From positions 4,949 through 68,948 of the forward strand of contig CAYUES010000001.1 of the NCBI GenBank assembly GCA_964443885.1: DNA of 64,000 bases. The letters are read 5' to 3'. Shown here one piece after another: positions 25,395 to 36,643 of the stretch (positions are counted from its first letter, which is position 1; each line of letters opens with the position of its first letter). This DNA is from an uncultured Pseudomonadales bacterium (GTDB lineage: Bacteria > Patescibacteriota > Microgenomatia > UBA1400 > PJMF01). Position numbers and translations under genes: made by a program. A model generated the notes under the pieces. The model searched no databases. It was not told the DNA's origin and saw only the letters and a list, made by a program, of their open reading frames with translations.

Positions 25395-26018
25395 TTACTT
25401 TTTAATGTACAAATACACTTCGTTTAGAGATTTTTCACTCTTCCAGTTGGGGAATGGAAAGCTATTGCAGATCACGCGCGCGCCTGGTTTGAGTTCGTTG
25501 AGTAACTTGGCTTCGAGATCTTTCATAATGTAGGTCATGCCAAAGAGTGTCACGATGTCGTAGTCGCCAAAGTTGGTAGTCCACATGTTTGCCCAGTAAA
25601 ACTCTGGGCGTTTTGCAGCCGGCAGTCCTCTACCCTGCCACTTGGACCACAGTACTAGGATTGGATTAATTTCATAGCCGTAGGCGCGTGCTCCAGCTGC
25701 AGCAAGCGCAAACGGAATTCGACCATCACCCGAGCCAATATCGACTGCTTTTTCGCCTTTTTTAATTTTTGCTAACTGCAGAATTGTCTCGATTTGTTTG
25801 TCTGAACTGGGATAGTAGATTGCGCCTTTGACAGTCGGGAGCAAAAACAGTAAATCAATGATAATGACAATGTATGCCAAGATGATGATGCTAATGCCGC
25901 TGAACCTGAAGAATGCTGGCTGTAACTCTGGGGGGAGCAGAAAGTAAATAATCACTTCAAGGGCAATAATCCCAAGGAAAATAGCTAGTGAACCAAGTAA
26001 GATTTTTTTTGGTGGCAT
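25395..26018 (-). CDS. Membrane-anchored class I SAM-dependent methyltransferase
   Basis: Two N-terminal TM helices then VDIGSGDGRIPFALA (motif I) and Rossmann-fold pattern. Confidence 0.65.
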   Translation of the reverse strand: MPPKKILLGSLAIFLGIIALEVIIYFLLPPELQPAFFRFSGISIIILAYIVIIIDLLFLLPTVKGAIYYPSSDKQIETILQLAKIKKGEKAVDIGSGDGRIPFALAAAGARAYGYEINPILVLWSKWQGRGLPAAKRPEFYWANMWTTNFGDYDIVTLFGMTYIMKDLEAKLLNELKPGARVICNSFPFPNWKSEKSLNEVYLYIKK

Positions 26019-26033
26019 TGAATGATTGTAACA

Positions 26034-26073
26034 AAAAAACCAATCCTTGAGTTTTTAATTCCAAGGATTGGTC
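26034..26073 (-). terminator. Intrinsic terminator for gene 26095..26289 (11-bp perfect hairpin plus U7 on minus strand)
   Basis: ACCAATCCTTG (26040-26050) pairs with CAAGGATTGGT (26063-26073). On the minus strand followed by TTTTTTT (26034-26040). Confidence 0.7.
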
Positions 26074-26094
26074 GTTTAAAGAGTTAAGTACTTA

Positions 26095-26289
26095 TTAAGT
26101 TTTTTTTGTTAATGCCCTGATAGTTTCCGCATCTATTGCTGCTTGTTTTTCATCAGTAAAATGAGGGTTGCCATTACTATCTACATGAACGCCAGCATCA
26201 TTTGTAGTTGGAACTGCTCTTGCCTTGTCAGCAGCTTCTTTAAGCTGTTCCTTAGTCATATTTCGAAAATCAACTAATTCTCCTGCCAT
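26095..26289 (-). CDS. Small hypothetical protein (64 aa, hydrophilic)
   Basis: ORF with downstream intrinsic terminator. No family assigned. Confidence 0.4.
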   Translation of the reverse strand: MAGELVDFRNMTKEQLKEAADKARAVPTTNDAGVHVDSNGNPHFTDEKQAAIDAETIRALTKKT

Positions 26290-26355
26290 ATTTTTCCTTT
26301 GTTATTTATTACTATTTTTCACTATAGCATACCAAGAGTTTTTGTAACAATAATT

Positions 26356-26694
26356 TTACTTACTCACCATACTATTTGTCACACTACCAATTATGGAGAG
26401 TGTGATAGCAAACAGTATCGCAGACATCACGCCTTCGAGTTCAAATCCTGGAACTACTGCATCGACCAAGAACAAAATTATCAAGTTGATCACGAACAAG
26501 AATAATCCAAAGGTGAGAATCGTAATCGGCAAGGTCAACAGTGTCAAAATTGGTTTAACAATTGCGTTCATAAAACCTAGCACTACCGTTACTAAGACAG
26601 CGCTCAAAAATGAGTCCACTCGCGCACCCGGAATTAGGTATGCAGCAAGCATAACTGTTATCGCATTGACGATGATTGAAAAAATAAGTGCCAT
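26356..26694 (-). CDS. DUF360 / phage-holin-4_2 family small membrane protein
   Basis: 112 aa, 4 TM. LIPGARVDSFLSAVLVTVVLGFMNAIVKPIL...FGLFLFVINLII matches PF04020 pattern. Confidence 0.6.
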   Translation of the reverse strand: MALIFSIIVNAITVMLAAYLIPGARVDSFLSAVLVTVVLGFMNAIVKPILTLLTLPITILTFGLFLFVINLIILFLVDAVVPGFELEGVMSAILFAITLSIIGSVTNSMVSK

Positions 26695-26795
26695 ATAATC
26701 TTTCTTCTAATTGTATAAATTTGAGTACAATTTAATGTACTGTAAGTATCATAGCTGAACCAGCAAGACAAAGCATGTGAGTTTTGTAAGAAAAA

Positions 26796-28565
26796 TTAGT
26801 AAATCTCGTAGGATGCAAGTAGTTTCTTGTTACCTTCCACCTGGTAGTTCAAAAGATCTTTGTAAATACCACTCTTTTGAGCCAGTTCAGCCGGTGAACC
26901 ATAGTCAACAATTCTGCCAGTATTGAGTACAATAATTTTCTTGACATTTTGGATCGTTGAGAAGCGGTGGGCAATAATAATTACGAGCTTATTTTTCATT
27001 AAGTTTTCTAATGCGTCTTGGACTTCTTTTTCAGACTTGGCATCCAAGCTGCTGGTTGCTTCATCCAAAATCAAAATTGGTGCATTTTTAAGAATGGCAC
27101 GGGCAATTTGAATACGCTGCTTTTGACCACCAGATAGCCGCACTCCTCGCTCGCCGACTTCAGATTCCAAGCCGTGTGGCAACTTCATCACAAAGTCGTA
27201 GGCATTGGCCAGTTTCAAAGCCTTAATGACATCTTCCTCTGAAGCACTTTCTGTTCCATACGCCACATTGTCTTTGATTGTTGAAGAGAACAACTCATTT
27301 TCCTGGAAAACCAAGGCAATGTTATTGCGCACCACGGTTGCATCAAGCTCACTGTAGCTTTTGTCTTTCATCAAAATATCGCCAGTTGTGGGGATGTAAA
27401 ACTTGAGGATCAAGTTGATGATCGTAGATTTTCCTGCACCACTGTGCCCCACCAGCGCGACACTTTCATTTTTCTTAATTGAAAACGAAACACCATCCAA
27501 GACAGTCGCAGATTCATCGTACTTGAATGAAACATTTTTGAACTCCAGCGTTGGATCAAGAAGTCGCTTTTTCTCGACATTTTTTTTGTAGTTTTCAGTA
27601 GAAGCCAGCTTCATTACTTCAAAGAACTCTTTGGAACCAGCTTCAGCAAACTGAATTTGCGTCAAGATATACGACATCGCAAAGAGTGGCATCCGGGCTT
27701 GATTGACGAGCTGCAGAATCAAAACCATCTCACCGATTGTTAAGTTCCCCGTAAACGTATTATAGAAAACTAAAACGTTAATAATAAATAAAATCACTAT
27801 CAAAGAAAGGCCGCGGAAGAAATCAAAGATATGAAATGTTTGACTTTGGCGGGCATAAATTTTGTTGATCTCAGTTAAGCCTTTTGAGACAACATCAAAC
27901 TCTTTTTTCTCGGTGATAAAACTTTTGACTAAGCGAATGTTAGAGATAACTTCTTGGATGCGGCCGCGGGTGCTGTCTTCAATTTTGTTCTTCTTCTCTT
28001 CTTCTTTACCCCAACGCACTGTTGAGTAGTGACTCAGGGTCAAATAGACAGGAAATAATAAAAAAGTACAGATTGCGATCGGCACATCGTAGTACGCCAG
28101 CACCGCAATCGTGAGGATACTCTGCAAAAAGGTCGGAACAATAAAGTTGGAAGAAGTATTTAGGAAACTATAAATTGAAGAAATGCCGCGATTTAATTGA
28201 TTGACGATTTTACCGGAAATTTCAGAGTCAAAGTAAGATTGTGGAAGTGTCAAAACTTTATCATAAAATTTCTCAGTCAAAAACTTACGAATCCGACCTT
28301 GGAAGTGATCACCAAGGCGTTCGCTGACTACTGTAGAAATTAGTCCGAGCAAGTTCATGACCAGTGAAATAATGATAAGAAATATGAGCCGATCCATGTC
28401 GCCACCAGCGCCAGATGTTTGGGCGACGATCTCATCCACGATAAACTTGGAAATCAAAGGAACAGCCAAAGTGAACAGTGATGAAATAATAATCAGTACC
28501 GCCAATGCTGCTACCAAATGATGCAGAGGCTTGGAGATTTTGATGATCTGTAGAATATTTTTCAT
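26796..28565 (-). CDS. ABC transporter, fused permease/ATP-binding protein (type I exporter, MsbA-like)
   Basis: 6-TM N-terminal domain. NBD with GHSGAGKST (Walker A), LSGGQKQRIQIARA (signature), ILILDEATSSLD (Walker B). Confidence 0.9.
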   Translation of the reverse strand: MKNILQIIKISKPLHHLVAALAVLIIISSLFTLAVPLISKFIVDEIVAQTSGAGGDMDRLIFLIIISLVMNLLGLISTVVSERLGDHFQGRIRKFLTEKFYDKVLTLPQSYFDSEISGKIVNQLNRGISSIYSFLNTSSNFIVPTFLQSILTIAVLAYYDVPIAICTFLLFPVYLTLSHYSTVRWGKEEEKKNKIEDSTRGRIQEVISNIRLVKSFITEKKEFDVVSKGLTEINKIYARQSQTFHIFDFFRGLSLIVILFIINVLVFYNTFTGNLTIGEMVLILQLVNQARMPLFAMSYILTQIQFAEAGSKEFFEVMKLASTENYKKNVEKKRLLDPTLEFKNVSFKYDESATVLDGVSFSIKKNESVALVGHSGAGKSTIINLILKFYIPTTGDILMKDKSYSELDATVVRNNIALVFQENELFSSTIKDNVAYGTESASEEDVIKALKLANAYDFVMKLPHGLESEVGERGVRLSGGQKQRIQIARAILKNAPILILDEATSSLDAKSEKEVQDALENLMKNKLVIIIAHRFSTIQNVKKIIVLNTGRIVDYGSPAELAQKSGIYKDLLNYQVEGNKKLLASYEIY

Positions 28566-28646
28566 GAAGACTATATGATAACTTAAATTAGATTAAATGA
28601 GGATACTTGGTATATAAAAAATTGATCTGTACTTTATAATTTAAGT

Positions 28647-29165
28647 ATGAAAAAGAAAGTACTTATTGGTGTGGGTGTTATTTTTATCATCATAGGGGTT
28701 GTCTACGCTAGCATAGCTGCTGGGTTATTGATTGCTTTAAGTCCCCTTTCCACTCTATACAACTTGCATACTGGTAAAAGCATTTCAGGTGTAGTTGTTA
28801 GTTGTGATACTGGATTACCTATTGCTGCTGCTGAAGTAGCAGTTTATGGAGCAGGTTGGGGAATGAGCAATGGAAAATTAATTTGGGATAAGTCGTATGG
28901 TTCAACCACTCAAACAGATAGCTCTGGCCGATATGACCTTACGTATAAGTTAGGGACTTCACTGCAAACAAAAAAAGAAGGATATCTTACTGCTCAAAAT
29001 CATGTAAAGAATGGCGACACAGTTCAGGTAAAACTACGAGAAATCACAGCTGACGTGGATCCAACTGAACTAACTTTTGACTGCCGTTTATCTTCAGAAT
29101 GTTACAAATTACGCGAAGAAGGTGATGTAATAGTAGGTTGGAATGACTGCACCAATCCTAGGTAG
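28647..29165 (+). CDS. Membrane-anchored carboxypeptidase-regulatory-like (CarboxypepD_reg/prealbumin-fold) domain protein
   Basis: N-terminal TM. ISGVVVSCDTGLPIAAAEVAVYG...TDSSGRYDL matches CarboxypepD_reg motif. TATAAT 6 nt upstream of ATG. Confidence 0.55.
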   Translation: MKKKVLIGVGVIFIIIGVVYASIAAGLLIALSPLSTLYNLHTGKSISGVVVSCDTGLPIAAAEVAVYGAGWGMSNGKLIWDKSYGSTTQTDSSGRYDLTYKLGTSLQTKKEGYLTAQNHVKNGDTVQVKLREITADVDPTELTFDCRLSSECYKLREEGDVIVGWNDCTNPR

Positions 29166-29185
29166 ATACTTCTATTCTTCAAGTA

Positions 29186-29653
29186 CTATACTTCAAACGA
29201 CATCTTGGTGTTCACTGACTTAAAACCTTTGCTTTCAAAAAATGAACAAGCGACGCCGTTGTGGTTGAAAACATCAAGTTCAACGTAGGGTATGTTTTGA
29301 TTTTTTGCGCGCGCCTTTACTTCATCAACGAGCTGTGTGCCGATGCCTTTACCTTGAAATTCTTTACTGACAGTAATGTGGCGAATGTACAGCGATTGGT
29401 ACGCAAAGTTTGTAAAGTTTTCATCGTAGGTGCGGACTTCGTAGACCAGATATCCAGTAGCCTGACAGTCTTCTGTTTCGTCAATCAGAATCACGATGTT
29501 ATCGGTATTAAAAAACTCCAAGAATAAGTTTTTGATTTCTTTTTGATTGTACGGTTTGAATTTATCAGGAAAAAGGCGATGATGCAGATCTTGGACATCT
29601 TTATTCAGTTCTGATAAAACAGGAACATCATTGATTGAGGTAGTACGGATCAT
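29186..29653 (-). CDS. GNAT family N-acetyltransferase
   Basis: ITVSKEFQGKGIGTQLV (acetyl-CoA binding Q/RxxGxG/A motif). ATG at 29653 chosen over longer track ORF (29809). Confidence 0.75.
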   Translation of the reverse strand: MIRTTSINDVPVLSELNKDVQDLHHRLFPDKFKPYNQKEIKNLFLEFFNTDNIVILIDETEDCQATGYLVYEVRTYDENFTNFAYQSLYIRHITVSKEFQGKGIGTQLVDEVKARAKNQNIPYVELDVFNHNGVACSFFESKGFKSVNTKMSFEV

Positions 29654-29798
29654 AAAATTTATTATAGCAATATTGTAGTTTAATCTGGTATTTTGGTATA
29701 CCCTGCAGCACGTAGTGCGATCACAATCCTGAGTAAAAGGGTCGAATTCATTTGGGATAGTATGCGTCAAGATAGTTAGCTCTGAGAAGATATAGCTA

Positions 29799-30434
29799 TC
29801 AAAATACAATATTCTTTACTTCGTTGATCATCTTGGCTTTTATCTCTTCCCAACTCACATCTTTGATCATACGTGGCAGAGGCTGTGCTTCTGCATCTTC
29901 AAAATAAACGAGCGATTTTAAAATGTGAGCTTGATTATAATCTACAGCAGAATACTTGGTTTTTGCCTTTTCAAGTAACTCTGGCAAATGATATATACTA
30001 AACAAAAAGAACAAATCCACAAAGTCTTTTTTACTCCCTCTCATGCTGACTGTTTGCAACTTGGTACAGGCAATATCAAGCACAGAACTAAGCTGTATTT
30101 CTTGCCAGTGACCAAGGGGTTCAAGCAATGGGTAGTGATACTCCAAAAACTGCAGTTTGACACCATCAACATAGGTATTTAATGTCCCTGTAGCAAGCTC
30201 AGTGTTGTTAAGTTGTCCTAATCCAGCAACTTCTTTTTCAAGTTGCAGAGGATTAAATTGCTCTGTACAGAAAAAATCCAAATCTTCAGACTCACGATGC
30301 CCTATCTGTAAAGATAGTCCTGTGCCTCCTGACAAATAAAAAGATTTTAGAAACTCAGGCTGTAATTGATGAATTTTTTCAACAAGTTTTGCAGTTTTGC
30401 TGGGTAGTGTTTCGGGGTAAAATGTTGTGCTCAT
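29799..30434 (-). CDS. AbiEii/AbiGii-family nucleotidyltransferase (type IV toxin-antitoxin toxin, DUF1814/PF08843)
   Basis: YLSGGTGLSLQIGHRESEDLDFF matches the AbiEii signature (GGTaLxxxxxHRxSxDlDf). Track start 30452 is TTG; ATG at 30434 overlaps the upstream gene stop as ATGA. Confidence 0.8.
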   Translation of the reverse strand: MSTTFYPETLPSKTAKLVEKIHQLQPEFLKSFYLSGGTGLSLQIGHRESEDLDFFCTEQFNPLQLEKEVAGLGQLNNTELATGTLNTYVDGVKLQFLEYHYPLLEPLGHWQEIQLSSVLDIACTKLQTVSMRGSKKDFVDLFFLFSIYHLPELLEKAKTKYSAVDYNQAHILKSLVYFEDAEAQPLPRMIKDVSWEEIKAKMINEVKNIVF

Positions 30435-30664
30435 GACAGGTAAATCCGCCAAAAATTACTTGATTTAGGTTGTAATTTTAATTGTGGGAGTAAGTTCTGT
30501 AGCTCTACTCTATTGGTCTGCTTAAAAAGCCAGTTTAGTGCTTCAGTATTGCCTTTATCAAGCAGTGTTTGAATGATGTATTTTTTGTGTTTTGACCAAT
30601 CTAGTTCATCTAAATTATCACCCCAAAAATAGGCTTCTAACTGCGTGGGAATCTGTAATTTCAT
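30431..30664 (-). CDS. Small protein translationally coupled to AbiEii toxin gene; candidate antitoxin/partner (not AbiEi-like)
   Basis: 77-aa ORF from ATG 30664 (TATAAT 7 nt upstream). Stop TGA overlaps AbiEii ATG (ATGA at 30431-30434). No wHTH/AbiEi signature seen. Confidence 0.5.
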   Translation of the reverse strand: MKLQIPTQLEAYFWGDNLDELDWSKHKKYIIQTLLDKGNTEALNWLFKQTNRVELQNLLPQLKLQPKSSNFWRIYLS

Positions 30665-30772
30665 TAAGTGTATTATACTAAATTTGGTACAGATTTTCTT
30701 GTTCAAAAGTAATTTTGAGTTCGATACTAGCAGATATAGCTATCAAGTTATAAATAAACTACAATTTCACTC

Positions 30773-31471
30773 ATGAGAAAACAACAGCAGATTTGGCAAA
30801 ACGAACATCTGACAGCCGCTACTCTCCCTTCAGAAATGACTGCATCTTCCATTCAAGAACCATCGAGTTATGTAGTTGCGTTCTGCGATTTTTTGAAAAC
30901 TCAAAATATATGTAGCGGGACACTTATCGATATTGGTGCTGGCAAAGGTAGAAACAGTATTTTCATGGCCAAACAAGGCTTTACCGTGACAGCAATAGAT
31001 TATATTCAAGAAGCAGTTGCATTTATTGATGCAGCTGCAAAAAAAGAAAAATTGGCCAAGCCCCTACAAGCAGTTTGCGCTGCCGCTGACGAAGATTGGC
31101 CATTTGCTGATAACTATTTTGATGTTGCAATCGATTGTTTTGCTTCTATTGATATTGAGACAAGGGCTGGACGAGAAAAATACCGCAGTGAATTACTGCG
31201 TACGCTCAAACCAGGTGGTTTTGCGCTTGTAGTTGTGGTTTCAAGCGATGATGAAATTGAAAAAGAGCTTATTAAAACAAATCCAGGTTTAGAAAAGAAT
31301 AGCAGTATTTGGCAGGTTAATGGAAAGTTTCAAAAAAATTATGATGAAGCAGAATTGAGAGAATTTTATTCTGATTTTAAAATTGTTGAGTTACAAAAAG
31401 TTTCAAAGCAAGCCCGCAAGTTAGGAAAAGATTTTACAGCTTCAAACTTTTGGGTTGTTTTGCAGAAGTAG
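30773..31471 (+). CDS. Class I SAM-dependent methyltransferase, TehB-like
   Basis: LIDIGAGKGRNSIFMA (motif I, cf. TehB DLGCGNGRNS), Rossmann pattern. Confidence 0.65.
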   Translation: MRKQQQIWQNEHLTAATLPSEMTASSIQEPSSYVVAFCDFLKTQNICSGTLIDIGAGKGRNSIFMAKQGFTVTAIDYIQEAVAFIDAAAKKEKLAKPLQAVCAAADEDWPFADNYFDVAIDCFASIDIETRAGREKYRSELLRTLKPGGFALVVVVSSDDEIEKELIKTNPGLEKNSSIWQVNGKFQKNYDEAELREFYSDFKIVELQKVSKQARKLGKDFTASNFWVVLQK

Positions 31472-31610
31472 AAAAAAGTGGGATAAACCTGGACTCCTCG
31501 AACTGATTGCTGCTGTAGAGTTTCAGCGCTTAAAATATTTGAATTGGATAAAAAGTTTAAGCAATAGTAAAGTTAGTAGTAATATTTTATTTTAATAAAA
31601 AAGGATATCT

Positions 31611-32066
31611 ATGAAATATGTTATGTATGCAATTGTAGGAGTTGTCGTATTATTTATTGGCGTTCCTCTTATTGGTGGAATTATTTCTGGTGTAAAACCA
31701 AGTAAATCAATAGAAATGGCTCAACAAAAGCAAGCTGAAAATCGCGAAGTATATGTCCCAGAAGGCTTCACACTTACAAAAAAAGCTGAAGCTACTGAAT
31801 CTGAGTTTGGCACTTTATACGTTACTGAAATGACAAGTTCAGATAATTCTATCCAGATTATCGAATCCACAAGTGCTGCACCAGATTGCAAAGGTGTGAT
31901 CACAGATATGGATGGAGTTTCAACTTGTTATTTTGCAACTGGCACAGTACCAGGAAATCCTAAAGCTCAATTAGTGATGTGGAGTGCAAATGATAAGAGT
32001 TATCAGTTGCAAACTGTAAGTACTCTTATGGAAGCAGAGTTGAAAAAAATTGTAGCAAGTTTGTAA
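31611..32066 (+). CDS. Hypothetical membrane-anchored protein
   Basis: N-terminal TM MKYVMYAIVGVVVLFIGVPLIGGII. SD AAAAGGA upstream. Intrinsic terminator downstream. Confidence 0.45.
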   Translation: MKYVMYAIVGVVVLFIGVPLIGGIISGVKPSKSIEMAQQKQAENREVYVPEGFTLTKKAEATESEFGTLYVTEMTSSDNSIQIIESTSAAPDCKGVITDMDGVSTCYFATGTVPGNPKAQLVMWSANDKSYQLQTVSTLMEAELKKIVASL

Positions 32067-32122: not shown

Positions 32123-32199
32123 TGGTGAGTCGGGAGGGACTCGAACCCTCGACATTTTGCTTAAGAGGCAAACGCTCTAACCAACTGAGCTACCGACCC
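32123..32199 (-). tRNA. tRNA-Lys (anticodon CTT), CCA encoded
   Basis: Reverse complement folds: acceptor GGGTCGG/CCGACTC, D-arm GCTCAGTTGGTTAGAGC, anticodon stem TTTGC/GCAAA with loop CTCTTAA, T-arm GAGGGTTCGAGTCCCTC, then ACCA. Confidence 0.85.
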
Positions 32200-32241
32200 A
32201 TTTTGTTCAACGTGATATTTTACCACGCGATAATTTTACTG

Positions 32242-32313
32242 TGCACCCAGCGGGAATCGAACCCACACAACTTGTTCCGAAGACAAGTGCCCTATCCGTT
32301 AGGCTATGGGTGC
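32242..32313 (-). tRNA. tRNA-Arg (anticodon TCG), no encoded CCA
   Basis: Reverse complement: acceptor GCACCCA/TGGGTGC, anticodon stem CTTGT/ACAAG with loop CTTCGGA, T-loop TTCGATT. Confidence 0.8.
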
Positions 32314-32516
32314 ATAGTCGCCTGCAAATGATATCACATGAGCAAGCTGTAACTATCCTGGATTATACCAACTTTCCTCAAGTATCGCATCACACAGAAC
32401 ACGAGTCGTACCAAAAGTCAAAATCGCACACAGAACCAAGGATTAAAAAGCACGGTGTTTCCAAGTTTTCTCCTACTCCCAAAATTGATCATAAAGGTCT
32501 ATACTCCAGAGGTAAT

Positions 32517-33206
32517 ATGAGTTCCTATTACGAATTAGTCAACAAAACTTTTAATCTTTCCCACCTTCGCGAGTACTTGCACGACAAATTTTCTGTTAAC
32601 GAGCAATCGTTCATTAATCCATTTATCACCGTGGCGCGTGAGCCAGGCAGTGGTGGCGCACCAATCGCCAAGGCTGTTGCCGAGAAGCTCGGCTTTGAGT
32701 TTATCGATGATCAAATTATCGAGGAAATCGCCCGCTCTACCAAACGTCGCAAGGCAGTCATTAAAGAAATTGATGAAAAAAGCCGCACCCGCATCGAAGA
32801 CGTGGTCCACTCGCTGGTGAATATCGAGTATTTAGACGAAGAAACGTATATTTCCGAGTTGGTACGCAGTATTCTCTCGTATGCGCACAAAGGCCGCTGT
32901 GTGATTCTAGGCCGTGGTGCCAACTTTATTACGCCATTTGCCAAAGGGTTGCATGTCAGTATCACCGCTCCGTATGAAGTTCGCGTCGAGCGGGCGATGC
33001 ACTATGAAGGTCTTTCTGAAGAGCAAGCCAAGGAAGTTATCAAAAAAGTTGAGGATGAACGGACAGACTTTGTAAAACAGTACTTTCGCAAAAATTTAAG
33101 TAAACGTAATGTCTTTGACATGACGTTAAACACCCACTACTTTACGGTACCCCAAGCCCGGGACGTGATCGTTGAAGCATTTCATCAAAAATTTGCGTCG
33201 CGGTAA
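32517..33206 (+). CDS. Cytidylate kinase-like family protein (PF13189-like P-loop protein)
   Basis: ITVAREPGSGGAPIAKAVAEKLGFEFIDDQIIEE resembles cytidylate-kinase-like P-loop region. ATG 32517 with GAGGT SD. The track ORF 5' extension (32241) runs through tRNA-Arg and is rejected. Confidence 0.6.
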   Translation: MSSYYELVNKTFNLSHLREYLHDKFSVNEQSFINPFITVAREPGSGGAPIAKAVAEKLGFEFIDDQIIEEIARSTKRRKAVIKEIDEKSRTRIEDVVHSLVNIEYLDEETYISELVRSILSYAHKGRCVILGRGANFITPFAKGLHVSITAPYEVRVERAMHYEGLSEEQAKEVIKKVEDERTDFVKQYFRKNLSKRNVFDMTLNTHYFTVPQARDVIVEAFHQKFASR

Positions 33207-33319
33207 GCCTGCCGTCAATTTTCATAGAAGAAAAGATTACTTAATTTCTCGCTCTACTAGATCTGCCAGAATTCAGTCTTTTGCGGTACAATAAGCCCTT
33301 ACTGTTTCGATGGTAACGT

Positions 33320-33403
33320 GCCGAAATGGCGGAACTGGTAGACGCGCACGCTTCAGGAGCGTGTGGGAGCAATCCCATGGAGGTTCGAGTCCTCTTTTCG
33401 GCA
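33320..33403 (+). tRNA. tRNA-Leu (anticodon CAG), type II
   Basis: Acceptor GCCGAAA/TTTCGGC, anticodon stem CACGC/GCGTG with loop TTCAGGA, long variable arm. Confidence 0.85.
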
Positions 33404-33428
33404 CAGGCTGGTATAATACAGTCGTAAC

Positions 33429-33510
33429 GCCCGGGTGGTGAAATGGTATACACGTACGCTTGAGGTGCGTATGCCGCAAGGTGTGGAGGTTCAACTCCTC
33501 TCCCGGGCAC
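33429..33510 (+). tRNA. tRNA-Leu (anticodon GAG), type II
   Basis: Acceptor GCCCGGG/CCCGGGC, anticodon stem TACGC/GCGTA with loop TTGAGGT, long variable arm. Confidence 0.85.
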
Positions 33511-33557
33511 AAGTAGTACACTGCGGAAAAATAATTCGCAGTTATAATCACTATATT

Positions 33558-33631
33558 GGACGCTTAGCTCAGTTGGTTAGAGCACTGCGTTTACATCGCA
33601 GGTGTCGGGGGTTCGAGTCCCTCAGCGTCCA
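33558..33631 (+). tRNA. tRNA-Val (anticodon TAC)
   Basis: Acceptor GGACGCT/AGCGTCC, D-arm GCTCAGTTGGTTAGAGC, anticodon stem CTGCG/CGCAG with loop TTTACAT. Confidence 0.85.
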
Positions 33632-33670
33632 CAAGTATTTGAAAATACGCTACAATACTGTAGTATTCGA

Positions 33671-33743
33671 GCCAAGCTAGCCAAGTCGGTCACGGCGCAT
33701 GTCTGAAAAACATGAGATTGAGGTTCGATTCCTCAGCTTGGCA
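33671..33743 (+). tRNA. tRNA-Phe (anticodon GAA)
   Basis: Acceptor GCCAAGC/GCTTGGC, anticodon stem CATGT/ACATG with loop CTGAAAA, T-loop TTCGATT. Confidence 0.8.
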
Positions 33744-33775
33744 CATTCAATATAGGTATCCACTACTTGAATGTG

Positions 33776-36643
33776 TTACTTACCCCAAGAAAAAAGATTC
33801 TTAAAAAACTTCATTAGTTTACCAAGTAGTGAAAGCTCCTCGCCATCTGCCGATGTCTCATCGTCTGCAGTTGTTTGAGTATCGGTAGTATCTGATTTTT
33901 TGTTGGTTGTAGATTTGCTATTGGTAGAAGTACGCTCTGTAAGCGTTTCATCATCAGCATCACTACTTTCATCCAGCTCTTCACCAAAACCATCATCTGC
34001 AGAATTTGACTCAGCATACGAAACCAATTGATTGGTGTGCGAAGTCAGTGTACTGCTCCACTCGCCTGGAGCACAGCCATTTCCAGCCCGAATCGCAAAT
34101 CTATAGGTAGCTTGAGGCTCCAAACTTTTGACAGTGAATTCTTGCACACCGTTGCTAGCAGCAGTAAACTCGACTGCATGCTCACCCAGATTTTCTTTGC
34201 CGTATTCAAGTAAGTAGTGGTCGGCATTGTTGTTGACAGGCACAAAGTAAATCGTTGCTTCACTGCCCTTTCGCTCGATAGAAAAAAGGGTCGGCGCGAC
34301 AGCTGGTTTGAAAAACGAGCAGACTGCCTCGGTAATTTTTTGCGAAACTGAAGAACTCGAGCTTTGGGAAGACGCAGCTGGCGTGGCTGTCGGAGTTGGG
34401 GTTGGTGTTGGAGTTGGGCAGTCCCCTTCTGTGGTAACTGTTCTCACCGACGACTCAGCAGTCGCCTCATAGGCATCGGTGCTGACAACTTGATAGTGAT
34501 ACTCTGTACAAGCAGTGAGGCCGCTCAGTTCTACCGTGTGCGAGGTGACGCGTGGAGCGGTATCAGTTTCAGCAGTGGCCGTGCCAAGCGAGCTGGTTAA
34601 GCCGTAGTTTACCTGGCTAGAAGCAGCGCGGGAAGTTGTCCAGGTAAGTTCTACAGTTGTACCCGTTACGGTAGCGTTTATTTCACTCAGTACTGGATCT
34701 TCACCAGTGGAAAGTTGGGTAGTTGCGGTATTAGAAAGTACAGTGTTATCGCGTGCTAGGAGATAACTATAAATTTCTTCGGGTGAAGCCACCCAAATTA
34801 CGTTGGTACCATCTGCTCCATATTCATCATTTGCGTGTTGGGCCACTTGTAAAAGTGCCGCTTCTTTATTGCCATGAGTTAAGGTGTTGTACCAAAAATT
34901 GCGGGTAGTTGTACTATTGGTATTCATCCAGTCAATAATTGCAATTGAGTCGGCTGGATCAACTTCAATGCCGAGGTCACGGCCGATTTTAACGGTATCT
35001 GAGTCTACTGCATCAGCAGATTGTCCAGCTGCCGAGTAGTTGGCAGCACCAGAATTAATAATCATCAAGCCATTGCCCCCAGACTGATTGAACTGGACTT
35101 CAGTCGTGGTATTGGTGCGGTGACTTACAATGAATGGGTCGTAGTCTGCCAAGAAACAAGGTGCTGCAAAACCAATCAGTTTGTATGTGGGTACGCTTGA
35201 TTCAGCAATAATACTTTTTAATCTATTGTACCCATCTAAAATATCAGTTTCCCAGTCGTCTCCCGGTGGGGCGCAGTTTGAGTACCAACCATGATTTCCA
35301 ATCGCCCAACCCATAGCCAGCAACTCCAGAATCCGTGGCTTATCAGCGATCCAGTCTTCTTGGCGAGTATCATTGACTAACTCAGCGATAATATTAACGC
35401 CCCCTGTCCAGCCAAAGCTAGTCATCAGCGCGATTTGTTCATCTAAATAGACGTTGTCATCCATGCTATGACTCCATGCAAATTTTTTGCCGTCTTTGAG
35501 CGGTGCTTTGCCAACAGCAAAACTACCCACATTTTGTGGATTCTTCACCAAGACACGGGCTGTATCGCCGCTGCCAGCAAAATAAACAATGCCCGTGGCA
35601 ATATTATGTGTATATGAAGTGGCAACTCCATCGATGTAGACATTTACTAAGGTTGAACTACCAATAGTGACTTGATAGGTGACGGTTCGCCAATAAATAT
35701 CGGGAATGCCAGAATCATCAATGTCAAAGTCAATCGCGTAGTAAATCGGATTTTCCACGACATTAACGGTGACGGTACCAGTATCGGTGTTAGCGGCAGG
35801 ATCACTAAGGGTGTAGGTAAAGGTGTCACTGCCCACATAGTCAGCTGTTGGAGTGTAGAGAATTTGATTATCTACAACTTGGGCTGTTCCATGGGCGGGC
35901 GTACCTACCCCAGTAACTGTCAGGGCGCCAGACTCAGGATCTGAGTCATTTAGCAAGACATTAAAAGTGGTGGCTGCATTCGTTTCGAAAGAATCATCTA
36001 CAGCGACCGGTGGTAAGTTAATCTCTTCGTAGGTAATAACTAAAGTGGGCTTGGGTTCACCACCACTATAGTCACCAGTGATGAACTGTCGATTGGAAAA
36101 AACTTCTGATCCATTGTCTCCAATCCAGATCATAATGCTGTCGTTGTAGTCCCAATCTGGGTGATCAACGAGTGCTTGAACTAACGCAGTCAGATCTGGT
36201 GAAACGGCAGTTTCGCCAAAGCCTTGATTAGGAACAGAGTTCCAGTCTACGGTAGTCAGAACGAGGTCGCTGGCTCGGGATACAAATTCAGCATAGTTTG
36301 AAGGAGCGGTAACGTCTGGAGAGTCTACCGCTCCAATCGTAACACTCACGGAGTTGCCTCCACTGCCAAAGTACGTTAACTCAAGGCTGGCATTAGAAAT
36401 AGTGGCACCAGGAGCAATTTCTAAACCTGAAAAAAGCAGTAAGTGTTCAACATCTGGACCACCAAAGACCATCAAACTGTCGTCACTATCAAACGTATCA
36501 GGCGCTTCAGCCCAAGTATCGGCAGTACCGGTGCCAACGATGATCTCTGTCGTCGTTTGTGCTTGGACAGTAGAAACAGCAAAATAAGAGAAAAAAATTG
36601 CTAGTAGGAGGTAGCTGAATAATCGGCGCATGACAAAACTCAA
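33776..36643 (-). CDS. Large secreted/surface protein with cadherin-like Ig domain, fibronectin-III-like domain(s), Pro-Thr linker and acidic Ser/Thr-rich C-terminal tail
   Basis: Signal peptide MRRLFSYLLLAIFFSYFAVSTVQA. VAVDDSFETNAATTFNVLLNDSDPESGALTV...DTFTYTLSD (cadherin-like/VCBS pattern). VELTWTTSRAASSQVNYGLTS...CTEYHYQVVSTD (Fn3-like). PTPTPTPTPTATP linker. D/E/S/T-rich tail ending in amphipathic LLGKLMKFFKNLFSWGK. Confidence 0.6.
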   Translation of the reverse strand: MSFVMRRLFSYLLLAIFFSYFAVSTVQAQTTTEIIVGTGTADTWAEAPDTFDSDDSLMVFGGPDVEHLLLFSGLEIAPGATISNASLELTYFGSGGNSVSVTIGAVDSPDVTAPSNYAEFVSRASDLVLTTVDWNSVPNQGFGETAVSPDLTALVQALVDHPDWDYNDSIMIWIGDNGSEVFSNRQFITGDYSGGEPKPTLVITYEEINLPPVAVDDSFETNAATTFNVLLNDSDPESGALTVTGVGTPAHGTAQVVDNQILYTPTADYVGSDTFTYTLSDPAANTDTGTVTVNVVENPIYYAIDFDIDDSGIPDIYWRTVTYQVTIGSSTLVNVYIDGVATSYTHNIATGIVYFAGSGDTARVLVKNPQNVGSFAVGKAPLKDGKKFAWSHSMDDNVYLDEQIALMTSFGWTGGVNIIAELVNDTRQEDWIADKPRILELLAMGWAIGNHGWYSNCAPPGDDWETDILDGYNRLKSIIAESSVPTYKLIGFAAPCFLADYDPFIVSHRTNTTTEVQFNQSGGNGLMIINSGAANYSAAGQSADAVDSDTVKIGRDLGIEVDPADSIAIIDWMNTNSTTTRNFWYNTLTHGNKEAALLQVAQHANDEYGADGTNVIWVASPEEIYSYLLARDNTVLSNTATTQLSTGEDPVLSEINATVTGTTVELTWTTSRAASSQVNYGLTSSLGTATAETDTAPRVTSHTVELSGLTACTEYHYQVVSTDAYEATAESSVRTVTTEGDCPTPTPTPTPTATPAASSQSSSSSVSQKITEAVCSFFKPAVAPTLFSIERKGSEATIYFVPVNNNADHYLLEYGKENLGEHAVEFTAASNGVQEFTVKSLEPQATYRFAIRAGNGCAPGEWSSTLTSHTNQLVSYAESNSADDGFGEELDESSDADDETLTERTSTNSKSTTNKKSDTTDTQTTADDETSADGEELSLLGKLMKFFKNLFSWGK

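Follow-up and report, generated by a model that had tools for sequence, protein, structure and literature searches.

The locus described here raises the question of what kind of protein accompanies a nucleotidyltransferase (NTase) of the AbiEii type when the gene directly upstream is far too small to encode AbiEi. It lies on the minus strand of contig CAYUES010000001.1 (GenBank assembly GCA_964443885.1), within a stretch of 64,000 nucleotides (nt) that we call the window and to which all coordinates refer unless another locus is named. Two overlapping open reading frames (ORFs) make up the pair, for which the initial annotation had proposed an abortive-infection or toxin-antitoxin module with a possibly undescribed antitoxin. 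We read it, with a probability of about 0.78, as a toxin-antitoxin cassette composed of an NTase toxin and an antitoxin of the family DUF6922, for which we infer toxicity, a tRNA target and binding between the two proteins. Judged from sequence comparison, DUF6922 would be a new family of antitoxins, neither AbiEi nor MenA1-like, paired with a known kind of growth-arresting toxin. The elements on which the argument turns are as follows.

29798..30710, minus strand: cassette shared with related loci, about 0.91 kb, which holds the promoter region and both genes; delimited by blastn
30431..30664, minus strand: small ORF, antitoxin candidate, a DUF6922 protein of 77 amino acids (aa); evidence from Pfam, homologues and selection
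29799..30434, minus strand: large ORF, toxin candidate, a short NTase of 211 aa of the AbiEii/MenT type (DUF1814); evidence from Pfam, PADLOC and Foldseek
30431..30434, minus strand: ATGA overlap of the stop and start codons of the two ORFs, read directly (TCAT on the plus strand)

A DUF6922 protein and a short AbiEii-type nucleotidyltransferase

The small ORF specifies 77 aa from its ATG; if it began at the TTG further upstream (30706), it would specify 91. We take the ATG for the real start, because 16 of the 19 close homologues are 76-78 aa long and begin at the same Met. In comparisons with three cassettes about 80% identical in DNA sequence, third codon positions take 20-22 of the 29-32 substitutions in the small ORF, and synonymous codon changes (19-21) outnumber non-synonymous ones (6-9). 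This bias and this excess identify a genuine gene under purifying selection, and the reading of the small gene as a spurious ORF was rejected on the same substitution pattern. The ATGA overlap stands exactly where the initial annotation had placed it, implying that translation of the toxin is probably coupled to that of the small ORF; of the 46 homologous small-gene/toxin pairs scored, 27 have this overlap of 4 nt as well.

The only Pfam match of the 77-aa protein is to DUF6922 (PF21956), a model of 52 positions. The match covers residues 11-48 at E = 1.4e-10, and its score of 40.9 bits exceeds the cut-off of 27. PADLOC and NCBIfam gave no match; all 19 close homologues carry a precomputed DUF6922 domain. 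The AlphaFold (AF2) model of the protein, with a mean predicted local distance difference test score (pLDDT) of 81, has five helices, i.e., a predicted five-helix bundle. A fold search with this model against the PDB gave no structural relative, and a PDB sequence search with the antitoxin profile returned chance matches only, e.g., pumilio repeats at E = 0.015. Neither Pfam nor the PDB fold search detected a helix-turn-helix (HTH) or other DNA-binding fold. The claim that the upstream protein is not a canonical AbiEi and has no HTH is thus upheld by the profile search, which found PF21956 rather than AbiEi, and by the predicted structure. The further claim of an undescribed antitoxin partner stands in part: the non-AbiEi family is new as a partner of DUF1814 toxins, but it was already catalogued in Pfam as DUF6922.

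Among 1.84 billion cluster representatives, a profile search found 799 members of the family (clusters at 50% identity, E <= 0.001), and stand-alone proteins of 73-125 aa are the majority among the best 150 of these 799 matches. In an alignment of 48 diverse members with the window protein, only F13, W14, G38, W45 and W72 are conserved at 90% or more, and no polar residue is conserved at 90%. W72 is part of a strongly conserved C-terminal K-S-x-N-F-W motif that lies outside the Pfam model. Because the conserved residues are aromatic or Gly, with no DNA-binding domain and no conserved polar residue, the pattern appears to be that of a binding protein, not of an enzyme. Family members are annotated "hypothetical" in every source, and the literature searched names neither "DUF6922" nor "PF21956"; the antitoxin role would give a proposed function to a Pfam family without an assigned one.

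One family member, P0205, is a protein of 183 aa with a weak, sub-threshold N-terminal match to HTH_11/DeoR and a C-terminal DUF6922 domain (L165/L166, 3001-3552; L167, 1153-1704), and a 206-aa AbiEii protein follows it in three contigs. The fusion resembles the plan of AbiEi, in which a DNA-binding domain precedes a neutralising domain, although the neutralising domain differs. This points to DUF6922 as the module responsible for neutralisation and to the 77-aa form as its minimal version.

These observations bear on whether the small protein could be no antitoxin at all but only a transcriptional regulator of the operon, the toxin being controlled in some other way. AbiEi and many other antitoxins do autoregulate their own operons, and short inverted repeats occur near the start of the small gene. 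The lack of a detectable DNA-binding fold argues against a regulator, as do the aromatic and Gly character of the family-conserved residues and P0205 itself, where a separate weak HTH stands before DUF6922, suggesting that DUF6922 is not the DNA-binding part. We consider a purely regulatory role very unlikely.

The 211-aa protein, our candidate toxin, matches the Pfam family AbiEii (PF08843; E = 1.8e-15; score 58.0 bits, cut-off 22.5), as well as several PADLOC AbiEii models. Its AF2 model (pLDDT 94; predicted template modelling score 0.89) finds as best PDB matches in Foldseek JHP933 (4OK0/4O8S; E = 1.6e-6), MenT4 (6Y56) and MenT1 (8AN5); beyond these DUF1814 enzymes, the matches are more distant NTases, including ANT(2'') and CCA-adding enzymes. 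The model and the solved DUF1814 proteins have the polymerase-beta-like NTase fold in common, which places the protein in DUF1814. A PDB sequence search with the single toxin sequence gave no match, and one with the toxin profile matched JHP933 weakly. The AbiEii/DUF1814 motif that the initial annotation had recognised in this gene is the first of two motif regions, both read from the translation:

30270..30332, minus strand: NTase motifs I and II (SGGTGLSLQIGHRESEDLDFF), with T38, H46, R47, Ser49, D51 and D53
30003..30077, minus strand: NTase motifs III and IV (DIACTKLQTVSMRGSKKDFVDLFFL), with K125, D137 and D140

The second region aligns with the motif R..RDLFDLHFL of JHP933. In MenT1, the catalytic set is T39, D41, D43, K137 and D152, with S78, D80, K189 and D211 as its equivalents in MenT3 (PMC10435456); S49-E-D51-L-D53, K125 and D137/D140 of the window toxin correspond to the MenT1 residues. 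Among 119 distinct relatives, down to 23% identity, no substitution occurs at T38, H46, R47, S49, K125, D137 or D140; D51 is present in 118 of them and D53 in 116. The enzyme looks active, since the catalytic residues are present and conserved across these relatives. In the C-terminal helical part, residues 147-203 (window about 29826-29996) have a weak profile match (E = 0.011) to the uncharacterised Methanocaldococcus jannaschii protein MJECL15 (PDB 3H92).

Conservation of the pair and direction of decay

We looked at the pairing from both sides. On the toxin side, the sample was made up of 80 loci from one-genome-per-species contigs. A narrow hidden Markov model (HMM) detects a same-strand DUF6922 ORF immediately before the toxin gene in 68 of them, and a broad one in 73; the ORF is missing from none of the 56 loci with the closest toxins (48-83% identical; L005-L060). 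On the antitoxin side, 80 metagenomic loci found with a narrower DUF6922 alignment (A1) have the toxin or its remains directly downstream in 74: the toxin is full-length in 54, cut by the contig end in 9 and fragmented or truncated in 11, whereas 4 loci have none and 2 leave no room for it. In two of the four loci without a toxin (L099 and L101), the small gene is an orphan, and behind it comes another, divergent pair of small gene and AbiEii gene. True DUF6922 orphans occur at L109 and L111, with a convergent gene immediately downstream.

Even distant members of DUF6922 (P0266 and P0254, 25-33% identical) precede an AbiEii gene, of 208-215 aa, and the distance matrices of the small proteins and the toxins correlate (r = 0.67), a value reached in none of 2000 Mantel permutations. 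Lack of conservation of the small ORF beside AbiEii homologues, which the initial annotation had named as fatal to its proposal, is therefore not what the genomes reveal: the pairing recurs in them.

The occupancy of the upstream slot also speaks to a canonical AbiE system whose AbiEi is encoded elsewhere or was missed. The Pfam and PADLOC AbiEii matches of the toxin are what such a system would give, but DUF6922 fills the slot in the 73 loci just mentioned, and neither the small protein nor the four nearest neighbours in the window match AbiEi, COG5340 or a winged HTH (wHTH) in Pfam, NCBIfam or PADLOC. A canonical AbiEi beside the pair, the other finding that was to count against the initial proposal, is thus absent. 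Moreover, the antitoxin model has no PDB match, though the PDB should include AbiEi (6Y8Q, cited in PMC11375011). A canonical AbiE system is extremely improbable here.

The direction of decay is a sign of the respective roles. The toxin gene is truncated or frameshifted beside an intact DUF6922 gene at L002/L085, L098, L107, L110, L113, L114, L116, L130, L140, L143, L157, L056, L059, L060 and L071; at L002/L085 (2542-2682), for instance, a 46-aa toxin remnant adjoins the intact small gene. The reverse, an intact close toxin without the small gene, was not found among the 56 closest loci. This one-sided decay is the pattern expected of a harmful NTase and a protective small protein, and it marks the NTase as the harmful partner.

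A HEPN-MNT arrangement, in which a minimal NTase (MNT) is the antitoxin and a small helical HEPN protein the toxin, was considered and rejected: with no polar residue conserved at 90% or more, DUF6922 lacks the R-x(4-6)-H motif, the NTase belongs to DUF1814 and not to MNT, and the harmful partner is, by its decay, the NTase.

Alternatively, the two proteins may form a non-toxic two-subunit enzyme, in which the NTase modifies a small molecule or RNA and the DUF6922 protein is a specificity or activating subunit. The resemblance of the toxin model to the aminoglycoside nucleotidyltransferase ANT(2'') and to CCA-adding enzymes is in keeping with this, as are the neighbouring acetyltransferase (GNAT) and methyltransferase genes, typical of small-molecule modification, and the fact that some DUF1814 proteins are non-toxic (PMC10435456). 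These neighbours are not conserved, however, since similarity between loci stops at the cassette limits; frequent loss of the NTase beside an intact small gene, with no instance of the reverse, is difficult to reconcile with an enzyme and an activating subunit; and an antitoxin-first order with overlap is typical of toxin-antitoxin pairs. We give the two-subunit enzyme little probability and keep to the toxin-antitoxin cassette.

Second DUF6922-like or AbiEii-like copies adjoin the cassette at several loci (L016, 3651-3851; L043, 2431-2640; L063, 1478-2029; L065, 3972-4541; L099/L101, 2727-3633), which suggests tandem cassettes. Furthermore, distant short AbiEii proteins (about 31-33% identical) at L074, L075, L076, L079, L080, L082 and L083 have a different upstream partner of about 68 aa, with the consensus ..IWDYD..EL...G..L.ER.INYG....EKI.L..VKKYW.KL.L.P....LFELLIWG. 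This partner has no Pfam match, and comparison of its profile (alignment A3) with DUF6922 by hhalign was negative (probability 3%), so that homology is not claimed; in L083, it ends in a C-terminal RSNFW similar to the DUF6922 tail.

Predicted expression and proposed neutralisation compared with known systems

The cassette includes a candidate promoter element directly before the antitoxin gene:

30672..30677, minus strand: TATAAT -10-like hexamer that ends 7 nt upstream of the start codon of the antitoxin gene (read from the sequence)

We surveyed the sequence just upstream of each antitoxin start at 41 loci within L005-L055. In 39 of them, spread over many phyla, a hexamer matching TATAAT at no fewer than five of six positions ends 4-10 nt before the start; a perfect TATAAT lies at exactly 6 nt before the start in 22, against 0-2 at any other offset, and a TGn extension of the -10 element is present in 13 loci. 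The position predicts that the cassette has its own promoter and that the antitoxin mRNA is leaderless, with a transcription start that we infer, because a -10 element so near the start codon leaves no room for a ribosome-binding site. The prediction uses standard promoter geometry.

The idea that a DUF1814 toxin can have a small antitoxin other than AbiEi is not new in itself: MenA1, which is unrelated to DUF6922, is a precedent (MenA1-MenT1, i.e., Rv0078B-Rv0078A, of Mycobacterium tuberculosis; PMC10435456, PMC11375011). In both pairs, the gene for a short DUF1814 toxin is preceded by one for a small antitoxin lacking a DNA-binding domain, and both toxins have the catalytic set of [S/T]-x-D-x-D, Lys and Asp. 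Structural alignment of the two toxins, however, gives an identity of no more than 15-16%, and MenA1 contacts its toxin with one extended helix (PMC11375011), whereas the DUF6922 protein is a predicted five-helix bundle; neither homology to MenA1 nor its single extended helix was found, so the protein does not belong to the MenA1 type.

The AbiEi-AbiEii pairs of Streptococcus agalactiae and Lactococcus lactis and MenA3-MenT3 are likewise comparable: they belong to the same PF08843 superfamily and are bicistronic and overlapping, with the antitoxin first, and the window toxin retains the residue equivalent to the phospho-acceptor T65 (AbiEii) or S78 (MenT3). The operon layout of AbiE is thus present, but not the COG5340/AbiEi-type antitoxin with a wHTH and a C-terminal domain. 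AbiEi and MenA3 are two-domain COG5340 proteins whose N-terminal wHTH autoregulates the operon (PMC7319586), in contrast to the 77-aa window partner without an HTH. The toxin is also shorter, at 211 aa against the 238 positions of the Pfam model. The best structural and profile match of the toxin, JHP933 of Helicobacter pylori (PDB 4O8S/4OK0), is 17-18% identical to it. In the literature searched, the partners of DUF1814 toxins are COG5340 proteins (AbiEi and related DUFs), COG4861 proteins and MenA1, and some DUF1814 genes have no linked antitoxin (Dy et al.).

By analogy with MenT1, MenT3 and AbiEii, the toxin would add nucleotides to the 3'-CCA ends of tRNAs, and this 3' extension would block aminoacylation and hence translation. 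The pair would be transcribed from its own -10 element as an mRNA leaderless at the antitoxin gene; the DUF6922 protein, encoded first, would be made before the toxin, whose translation would be coupled through the ATGA, and would bind the toxin directly and keep it inactive. Neutralisation could be by simple occlusion, as in type II systems. Alternatively, the DUF6922 protein might push on the active-site loop of the toxin and make it phosphorylate its own Ser49, as in type VII systems.

For the latter, the precedents are MenA1-MenT1, MenA3-MenT3 and AbiEi-AbiEii, in which two unrelated types of antitoxin are reported to induce auto-phosphorylation of the equivalent Ser or Thr. S49 occupies the position of the MenT1 phospho-acceptor T39, two residues before the first catalytic Asp, and so has the placing that is characteristic of type VII toxins. 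T38, in the GGT motif, had been considered as phospho-acceptor and was dropped, since the MenT1 paper puts the acceptor two residues before the first Asp, i.e., at S49. Invariance of S49 fits neutralisation by auto-phosphorylation and does not prove it; we propose this mechanism tentatively, at somewhat less than even odds.

Several points weigh against the reading as a whole or against parts of it. MenT1 T39 is described as important to the catalytic cycle, and the conservation of Ser49 could reflect catalysis rather than regulation. MenT2 is non-toxic, as is MenT1 in Escherichia coli (PMC10435456), and a DUF1814 fold is therefore no guarantee of toxicity in every host. No NCBIfam model is matched by either protein, and PADLOC has no model for the small one. 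A promoter scanner called no promoter at the -10 element; it requires a good -35 hexamer, which is missing there. Covariation between the two proteins is weak (mutual information with average product correction; effective number of sequences, 75): antitoxin W23 covaries with toxin Q43, Q127, L17 and F28 at z of 5-6, and as one clade split could explain this signal, we have kept it out of the evidence.

DUF1814 (AbiEii/MenT) toxins are widespread and have been studied in M. tuberculosis and streptococci, and it is currently proposed that their very different antitoxins all act by inducing auto-phosphorylation of the toxin. With DUF6922, a third and much smaller partner, unrelated in sequence and predicted fold, becomes available for a test of that proposal; if the Ser49 reading is true, it extends the proposed universal type VII control to a minimal partner of 77 aa. 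Antitoxin swapping is common, so that a new partner would in principle be no surprise to a specialist. The family is nevertheless large, unstudied and readily testable, with more than 4000 clusters at 90% identity in the toxin subfamily, and it is concentrated in uncultured lineages such as Patescibacteria. The pairing would also account for "orphan" AbiEii genes being overlooked by those defence-system finders that require AbiEi.

Limits, spread and surroundings of the cassette

The limits of the cassette are those at which blastn similarity to L005, L006 and L007 (79-80% identity) ends; the flanks are unrelated. In the window, it is bracketed by a direct repeat:

29774..29809, no strand: left copy, 36 nt, 75% identical to the right copy, overlapping the toxin stop codon
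30718..30753, no strand: right copy, between the cassette and a divergent methyltransferase gene (found by repeat comparison)

Both copies contain the exact 15-nt core AGATATAGCTATCAA. Such repeats were found at four other loci: L030 (31 nt, 97% identical; 2643-2673/3615-3645), L049 (54 nt, 89%; 2615-2668/3666-3719), L039 (36 nt, 89%; 2697-2732/3641-3676), where the spacing of 944 nt equals that in the window, and, more weakly, L041. They are 31-54 nt long and specific to each locus, whereas mismatched pairs of upstream and downstream flanks, used as a control, never had more than 14 nt in common. The repeats resemble long duplications of a target sequence, although the cassette has no gene for a recombinase.

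Hosts include many lineages of Patescibacteria, Anaerolineae, Limisphaerales, Methylomirabilota and others, as well as metagenome-assembled genomes labelled Pseudomonadales, Gammaproteobacteria or Methylococcaceae. From this patchy distribution, the cassette of about 0.9 kb appears to spread between phyla as a unit. Among 396 pattern matches in viral contigs, there is no relative, a result that we take as neutral with regard to phage defence. The promoter, predicted to be leaderless, and the long repeats at the flanks provide leads on how minimal cassettes are expressed and spread. The joint proposal is that DUF6922 is a third, structurally unrelated class of antitoxin inducing auto-phosphorylation of Ser49, and that a leaderless cassette of about 0.9 kb moves between phyla, duplicating a target of 31-54 nt without a recombinase of its own; that all of this should hold together is rather improbable.

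The cassette might also serve mainly in phage defence by abortive infection, and not in selfish addiction, a role compatible with the toxin-antitoxin mechanism. AbiE of L. lactis gives phage resistance, and one distant cassette adjoins genes for Metallophos, AAA_15/AAA_23 and type IV secretion system pilin proteins; the neighbours in the window are not defence genes, however, and the other contexts are varied and mostly housekeeping. We regard defence as the main role as possible, if on the unlikely side.

The genes flanking the cassette encode a GNAT acetyltransferase and a TehB/S-adenosylmethionine methyltransferase, as the initial annotation had it, whereas the two neighbours that it took for surface proteins have only sub-threshold Pfam matches. 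The G+C content is 0.36-0.38 across 26001-32000, which includes the cassette and its neighbours, against 0.40-0.48 elsewhere in the window. Of the 14 tRNA genes in the window, six form two clusters (32123-33744) at a distance of 1.4-3 kb from the cassette, and in L006, a tRNA-Lys gene (2541-2614) ends about 110 nt before the cassette. A 321-aa ORF at 32241-33206 (plus strand) starts within opposite-strand tRNA genes, so that the first part of its translation is probably spurious and the gene likely begins further inside the frame. Beyond the tRNA cluster, 33776-36643 (minus strand) encodes a predicted secreted protein of 955 aa that has a TPTPTPTP linker and ends in an acidic tail rich in Ser and Thr.

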